A stretch of DNA of 64,000 nt. Source: Escherichia coli (GTDB lineage: Bacteria > Pseudomonadota > Gammaproteobacteria > Enterobacterales > Enterobacteriaceae). The stretch is from assembly GCF_003334315.1 (NCBI RefSeq), contig NZ_QOWR01000015.1; one strand, given 5' to 3'. The position numbers were made by a program, and so were the translations under genes. Each line of letters begins with the position of its first letter. The first letter of the stretch is position 1. The notes below the pieces were generated by a model. It was not told the DNA's origin. It ran no database searches and worked only from the letters and a program-made list of their open reading frames with translations. Below, in pieces: positions 41,863 through 42,669 of the stretch.

Positions 41863-42046
41863 ATTTCTCTGAGATGTTCGCAAGCGGGCCAGTCCCCTGA
41901 GCCGATATTTCATACCACAAGAATGTGGCGCTCCGCGGTTGGTGAGCATGCTCGGTCCGTCCGAGAAGCCTTAAAACTGCGACGACACATTCACCTTGAA
42001 CCAAGGGTTCAAGGGTTACAGCCTGCGGCGGCATCTCGGAGATTCC
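41863..42046 (+). ncRNA. ssrS: 6S RNA (SsrS), RNA polymerase-binding regulatory RNA
   Basis: Sequence ATTTCTCTGAGATGTTCGCAAGCGGGCCAGTCCCCTGAGCCGATATTTCATACCACAAGAATGTGGCGCTCC... matches 6S RNA; lies between zapA and fau. The 3' end is approximate. Confidence 0.85.
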
Positions 42047-42120
42047 CTTCTTATCTGGCACCAGCCATGACGCAACTACCAGAACTCCCACTGATATTAT
42101 CCCGACAAGAAATCCGCAAA

Positions 42121-42669
42121 ATGATTCGGCAACGTCGTCGTGCGTTAACGCCGGAACAACAGCAGGAAATGGGTCAACAAGCCGCTACCCGGATGATGAC
42201 TTATCCCCCGGTGGTGATGGCACATACGGTCGCTGTATTCCTCTCTTTTGATGGCGAACTCGACACCCAGCCACTCATAGAACAACTCTGGCGCGCCGGT
42301 AAGCGCGTATATCTTCCAGTTTTGCATCCCTTTAGTGCCGGTAATTTGCTGTTCCTGAATTACCATCCGCAAAGCGAACTGGTGATGAACAGGTTGAAGA
42401 TCCATGAGCCAAAATTGGATGTGCGTGACGTGCTCCCCCTTTCCCGATTAGACGTCCTGATCACCCCCCTGGTCGCCTTTGATGAGTACGGTCAGCGCCT
42501 GGGAATGGGCGGAGGTTTTTATGATCGGACCTTACAAAACTGGCAGCACTATAAAATGCAACCGGTGGGTTATGCGCATGATTGTCAGTTGGTGGAAAAA
42601 CTCCCCGTTGAAGAGTGGGATATCCCACTGCCTGCGGTGGTTACACCGTCGAAAGTCTGGGAGTGGTAA
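42121..42669 (+). CDS. fau: 5-formyltetrahydrofolate cyclo-ligase
   Basis: ORF 41923-42669; the 5' part overlaps 6S RNA, so the start is set at ATG 42121 (MIRQRRRALTPEQQ); ATG 42067 is an alternative. Confidence 0.8.
   Translation: MIRQRRRALTPEQQQEMGQQAATRMMTYPPVVMAHTVAVFLSFDGELDTQPLIEQLWRAGKRVYLPVLHPFSAGNLLFLNYHPQSELVMNRLKIHEPKLDVRDVLPLSRLDVLITPLVAFDEYGQRLGMGGGFYDRTLQNWQHYKMQPVGYAHDCQLVEKLPVEEWDIPLPAVVTPSKVWEW

Follow-up and report, generated by a model that had tools for sequence, protein, structure and literature searches.

The closest described system to the locus studied here is the ssrS-ygfA (fau) unit of Escherichia coli K-12, described as a dual-function unit by Hsu et al. 1985, Kim & Lee 2004 and Chae et al. 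2011. Both co-transcription of the two genes and processing of 6S RNA from the joint transcript have been published (PMC2848244, PMC3299989, PMC12152304, PMC7641849; PMC7726162 also deals with the operon), so that the suggestion of the preliminary description of this DNA, namely that 6S is processed out of a precursor shared with fau, agrees with what these papers already establish. According to the published work, the 5' side of 6S is processed from precursors by RNase E/G, and Rho terminates transcription within ygfA to give the primary 3' end (Chae et al. 2011, as cited in PMC3299989; also Cavanagh et al.). Read-through into fau is reported to rise in stationary phase. The E. coli 6S RNA binds the sigma70-RNA polymerase holoenzyme and serves as a template for pRNA synthesis (PMC3299989). 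The ssrS-ygfA linkage has been described as highly conserved (PMC2848244, PMC7641849), 6S being located in the 5' UTR of ygfA in Coxiella burnetii (PMC4064990), and the ygfA product has been referred to as a putative or predicted cyclo-ligase (PMC2848244, PMC7641849). With regard to the translation start, tetracycline-arrested ribosome profiling (TetRP; Nakahigashi et al. 2016, PMC4909307) has placed ygfA initiation at an ATG at -54 relative to the annotated start.

The window, that is, the whole stretch of 64,000 nucleotides analysed here and to which all positions refer, is E. coli chromosome and carries the locus zapA-ssrS-fau-sibC/ibsC. The segment 41400..42900 was found in every complete E. 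coli genome searched (5426 of 5426), with 100% identity in some strains, and it showed a 99.2% match to strain 9FA, whose locus coordinates are those of K-12 MG1655. The annotated E. coli gene order is pepP, ygfB (-), zapA, ssrS, fau (+), ibsC/sibC and serA. Two residues distinguish the window Fau from that of K-12 (200-aa numbering): residue 10 (42094..42096) is I versus T in K-12 (PL-I-LS vs PL-T-LS), and residue 163 (42553..42555) is M versus T (HYK-M-Q vs HYK-T-Q). The coordinates of all features are compiled in Table 1. Downstream of fau, O157:H7 displays a second Sib/Ibs unit in tandem, and O111 and other strains likewise gave a longer match in two pieces and have another Ibs toxin annotated. 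Elsewhere in the window, Rfam matches were recorded for naRNA4, a REP-derived nucleoid-associated RNA (28276..28353, +; 75 bits), and for ES036/CssrF (55919..55961, +; 47.3 bits).

Table 1. Features of the ssrS-fau locus in window coordinates.
Feature	Position	Strand	Basis or remark
Promoter-like site (ATGACA, 18-nt spacer, TG, TAGAGT)	41818..41847	+	Consensus scan
ssrS, 6S RNA	41863..42046	+	Rfam RF00013; Rfam and PGAP both give 184 nt
Spurious 5' extension of the fau ORF, non-coding	41923..42066	+	Crosses 6S and the spacer
Candidate rut region (Rho loading)	42040..42117	+	C-rich, G-poor maximum
6S-fau spacer, 20 nt, pyrimidine-rich, no SD motif	42047..42066	+	Composition, SD scan
fau (ygfA), 5-formyltetrahydrofolate cyclo-ligase, 200 aa; preferred gene model	42067..42669	+	Profiles, PGAP, TetRP, conserved ATG
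Internal Met19 codon; start of the curated K-12 MG1655 182-aa model	42121..42123	+	Probably not the main start
SibC antitoxin RNA	42695..42845	+	RF00113, 133.8 bits; directly downstream of fau
ibsC toxin ORF	42770..42829	-	Coordinates transferred from an annotated E. coli record; opposite SibC strand

The 6S gene was delimited by the covariance model RF00013 (6S/SsrS), which matched over its entire length (model 1-187 of 187) with 139.8 bits (E = 2.2e-28), the gathering score being 46.4 bits; by this model the RNA belongs to the 6S family, a single non-standard pair being flagged. The gene is annotated as ssrS in three PGAP records and in the curated K-12 record, which ends it one nucleotide earlier, at the equivalent of 41863..42045. 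The predicted MFE fold of the window 6S recovers the long closing stem, and two of the Escherichia loci used for comparison below (L005 and L007) carry a 6S sequence 100% identical to it. Upstream, the consensus scan pointed to a promoter-like site with 9 of 12 consensus matches and a TG ahead of the -10 hexamer (extended -10), the 3' edge of which lies 16 nt ahead of the mature 6S 5' end. By its position, this candidate agrees with P1, the proximal ssrS promoter described earlier (Kim & Lee 2004). It may be P1 itself, with transcription starting about 9 nt before mature 6S.

The protein encoded downstream was assigned with the 200-aa form that starts at 42067. NF007661 aligned with 446.2 bits (cut-off 343; model 2-198 of 198 on residues 4-200) and TIGR02727 with 179.7 bits (cut-off 84.9; model 1-182 of 182 on residues 13-194), while PF01812 matched in full (model 1-186 of 186, E = 2.3e-47), its first position falling at window 42103. 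Four solved MTHFS homologues (PDB 2jcb, 1ydm, 1sou and 3hxt) aligned from residues 12-14, with E values between 1e-16 and 1e-23. Both the curated equivalog cut-offs and the full model coverage place Fau within the 5-formyltetrahydrofolate cyclo-ligase family, and the protein is predicted to be an ATP-dependent enzyme converting 5-formyl-THF into 5,10-methenyl-THF.

The longest fau-frame ORF in the program-made list (41923..42669, +; 248 aa) begins with an ATG located 60 nt into the 6S gene and overlaps 124 nt of it, the frame being open from as far upstream as 41845. As the preliminary description had observed, the fau-frame ORF therefore reaches into the 6S sequence (RF00013 at 41863..42046, ORF at 41923..42669), and its view that 41923 is not the true start is borne out by comparison with relatives. 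For this purpose, we took from species-representative genomes 68 loci that encode relatives of Fau, walked the reading frames upstream and mapped 6S. Counted from the 6S 5' end, the fau start lands in each of the three phases about equally often (23, 21 and 19 of 63 loci), which indicates that insertions and deletions between the two genes accumulate without triplet constraint and excludes coding through 6S. An in-frame ATG inside 6S is confined to the 5 Escherichia loci. Outside this genus the frame ends in 6S or shortly past it; it meets a stop, or reads the conserved 3' half of 6S out of phase, in Citrobacter, Enterobacter, Klebsiella, Salmonella, Kosakonia, Kluyvera and others. Neither the family models (PF01812, TIGR02727 and NF007661) nor the solved structures align with residues 1-51 of the 248-aa ORF. 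Translation from 41923, which would lengthen Fau to 248 aa through 48 N-terminal residues encoded by ssrS (containing MWRSAVGEHARSVR), has in its favour solely the open frame from 41845 and the Escherichia ATG, and against it the lack of conservation of the frame, an extension devoid of homology, the absence of an SD motif, the position of this ATG within the highly structured 6S body, and the fact that every annotation checked leaves it unused; we consider it practically negligible. On its sequence, the 41923 start is a longest-ORF artefact, and the 248-aa ORF is a frame that merely happens to stay open across 6S in Escherichia.

Two further in-frame ATGs can be read directly in the window sequence, at 42067 (20 nt past 6S) and at 42121 (74 nt past 6S), giving proteins with the N-termini (M)TQLPELPL (MTQLPELPLILSR) and MIRQRRR, respectively. 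We conclude that fau most likely begins at 42067, 20 nt after 6S. This start is favoured over 42121 by (i) the conservation of its ATG in 67 of 67 loci, compared with 14 of 67 for the downstream codon, (ii) the homology that extends upstream of 42121, (iii) the PGAP annotation, and (iv) the TetRP signal at -54. The preliminary description had ranked 42121 first and 42067 second, an order which these same data reverse; its wording that the start lies just past the RNA 3' end holds for 42067 better than for the codon it preferred.

The start-codon counts refer to the 67 loci in which an RQxIR motif was found. In every one of them an ATG occurs 7-15 codons upstream of the motif, the distance being exactly 10 codons in 60 loci and 12 in the 5 Escherichia loci; the Escherichia N-terminal extension is thus two codons longer than that of other genera (12 vs 10). 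Among the 60 loci with 10-codon spacing, the string ATGAC is invariant. Positional entropy over the nine codons that follow the upstream ATG has a coding-like profile (1.02, 0.72 and 1.38 at codon positions 1, 2 and 3; 2 < 1 < 3), and no codon-like pattern is apparent for the 24 nt before it (1.42/1.18/1.46). Residues 2-12 of the 200-aa Fau, which make up the extension, are far less conserved than the domain.

Initiation at 42121 only, which would give a 182-aa protein preceded by a 74-nt untranslated leader (42047..42120), is the start annotated in K-12 MG1655. Its ATG is shared by all Escherichia, by Salmonella enterica subsp. arizonae, and by three Pseudocitrobacter and five Citrobacter loci (14/67), and the shortened protein scores above both NCBIfam cut-offs even though it loses positions 1-7 of TIGR02727 (8 bits) and 1-16 of NF007661 (20 bits). 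Yet the other 53 of the 67 loci have no start codon at the equivalent position, which reads CTG, TTA, CTA, GTT, CAG, CAC and others, although the upstream protein sequence can still be aligned, and the family models and the four solved homologues begin 5-7 residues upstream of this methionine. With the TetRP class being that of the -54 site rather than 'multiple' (PMC4909307), and with no SD motif at 42121 either, we regard exclusive use of 42121 as very improbable.

The annotation records point to 42067 as well. In three of three records, including strain 9FA (MG1655 locus coordinates), PGAP uses the 42067-equivalent start, and the curated K-12 MG1655 record alone among those checked keeps 42121 (182 aa). 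UniProt likewise keeps the 42121 start for Fau. In K-12 coordinates (NC_000913.3), 42067 corresponds to 3056187 and 42121 to 3056241, and the reference fau start is probably 18 codons too short.

As for the profiling data, the ygfA ATG at -54 is 42067; in the TetRP supplements, ygfA is manually classed as '1. new site' (Table S2, row 100) and recurs, under the label 'alt-N'(new)' and with 200 aa, in the intergenic screen (Table S5; PMC4909307). Among the 19 of 154 revised genes covered by the N-terminal peptide proteomics of that study, ygfA was not seen (PMC4909307), and the supplements of the TRAINSPOTTER paper hold no entry for fau, ygfA, b2912 or P0AC28. Use of both starts in E. coli, with a major 200-aa and a minor 182-aa form, would be in keeping with the presence of two in-frame ATGs, neither with an SD motif, with the dual initiation that the TetRP paper reports generally (22 of 67 inspected genes; PMC4909307), and with small non-zero values in the ygfA row of its Table S2, in columns of uncertain assignment (PMC4909307). 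However, the manual class for ygfA is '1. new site' and not '4. multiple' (PMC4909307), the 42121 ATG is not conserved beyond a few genera, and the short form misses the first part of the conserved N-terminal stretch to which the solved structures align, all of which makes a second, minor start improbable.

Turning to the sequence that separates 6S from the 42067 start, the spacer (42047..42066) consists of C (0.40), T (0.30) and G (0.15) in these fractions, and its best SD:anti-SD duplex reaches -1.5 kcal/mol. SD pairing is negligible at each of the three candidate starts, 41923, 42067 and 42121 (-0.7 to -1.5 kcal/mol in all three cases). Since no recognisable SD motif precedes any of them, sequence signals alone cannot discriminate, and a choice between starts on this basis was discarded as uninformative. 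The 20-nt gap agrees with the earlier statement that 6S lies immediately upstream of fau, and it is typical of the relatives: of 63 enterobacterial loci, 60 have a 6S-to-ATG gap of 14-24 nt, and 4 Pasteurellaceae loci have one of 12-15 nt. Gaps of ~100-125 nt were noted in Klebsiella spallanzanii (L031), Enterobacter sp. 10-1 (L038) and an uncultured Klebsiella MAG (L049). In 19 of the 20 related loci scanned, including the 4 Pasteurellaceae, 6S immediately precedes the cyclo-ligase gene. In Colwellia demingiae (L062), a Fau homologue is present, but no 6S match at gathering score was obtained within 1.5 kb upstream. The measured gap lengths are an addition of the present work, as we have not seen such a tabulation in the earlier literature.

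The layout is that of an operon, with 6S followed at once by fau on one strand, a 20-nt gap and no intervening terminator: the terminator scan of 41300..43000 detected no intrinsic terminator between 6S and fau. The sole terminator-like site in that range (42496..42511) is situated inside fau, and one such site is no more than shuffled sequences give. A 78-nt sliding window moved over 41800..42700 reached its highest C-to-G ratio, 2.45 (27 C vs 11 G), at 42040..42117, and across 20 genera no conserved secondary structure was found in 42043..42183. This stretch, C-rich, G-poor and without conserved structure, resembles a Rho loading site as far as its composition can tell. A start-sequestering hairpin was also considered, as the single-sequence MFE fold would pair the 42067 region with ~42130-42145; this candidate was rejected, RNAalifold over the 20 genera returning 4 trivial pairs, no covariation and -3.24 kcal/mol.

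Taken together, these data lead us to read the locus, with a probability of about 0.85, as an ssrS-fau dual-function unit in which 6S is processed, read-through into fau is limited by Rho, and a 200-aa Fau is made from 42067. The co-transcription, the RNase E/G processing, the Rho-dependent termination and the TetRP signal are those of the published work. According to this scheme, the ssrS promoters would give rise to precursor transcripts, whose 6S 5' side would be cut back by RNase E/G. Most transcripts would be ended by Rho-dependent termination in early fau, and exonucleases would then trim them to the 6S 3' end (~42045/42046). The minority that read through would constitute the fau mRNA, from which translation, initiated at the 42067 ATG, would yield the 200-aa 5-formyltetrahydrofolate cyclo-ligase, with 42121 serving as an internal Met codon. 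The C-rich, SD-less region following 6S would be the site where Rho and ribosome loading compete, and we infer that weak initiation at 42067 competes with Rho loading and so sets the level of read-through into fau.

A stronger proposal, which we put forward as speculative and rather unlikely, is that the fixed short distance between the 6S helix and the start (12-24 nt in Enterobacteriaceae and Pasteurellaceae), set in an SD-less, C-rich tract, is a functional design in which a ribosome loading at 42067 and Rho would exclude each other from the same ~80 nt. If this were true, growth-phase changes in initiation would decide whether 6S only or 6S together with fau mRNA is produced, and the distinction between 42067 and 42121 would matter for the mechanism, since ribosomes would cover the rut-like tract only when starting at 42067. 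RNA polymerase bound to 6S beside the start site might also influence the read-through decision.

In its biology, the locus is an ordinary and previously described one, with co-transcription long known, and it carries little new import, given that work on the ssrS-ygfA operon, including its processing and Rho-dependent termination, dates back to 1985. The value of the analysis lies in annotation. Calling the longest ORF yields a spurious Fau of 248 aa, overlapping an RNA gene, and the curated K-12 record probably cuts 18 residues off Fau, including the first of the conserved N-terminal segment. For constructs, for the design of deletions that spare 6S and for structural models, the 200-aa form, whose start lies 20 nt past 6S, is the appropriate one.

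Compared with the K-12 ssrS-ygfA (fau) dual-function unit, the window is alike in its locus and in the order zapA, ssrS, fau, sibC/ibsC, serA, with 6S directly upstream of fau in both and with co-transcription and processing as published; there is no biological difference between the two, and the discrepancy is restricted to annotation (182 aa vs 200 aa). Nor does the window differ from the ssrS-ygfA linkage known in gamma-proteobacteria and beyond (Barrick et al. 2005; Coxiella burnetii, PMC4064990). The start revision from TetRP, a new ygfA ATG at -54 giving 200 aa (PMC4909307), is identical to the 42067 model; that study drew on a profiling signal only, and the comparative and homology evidence presented here, which is independent of it, is in agreement.
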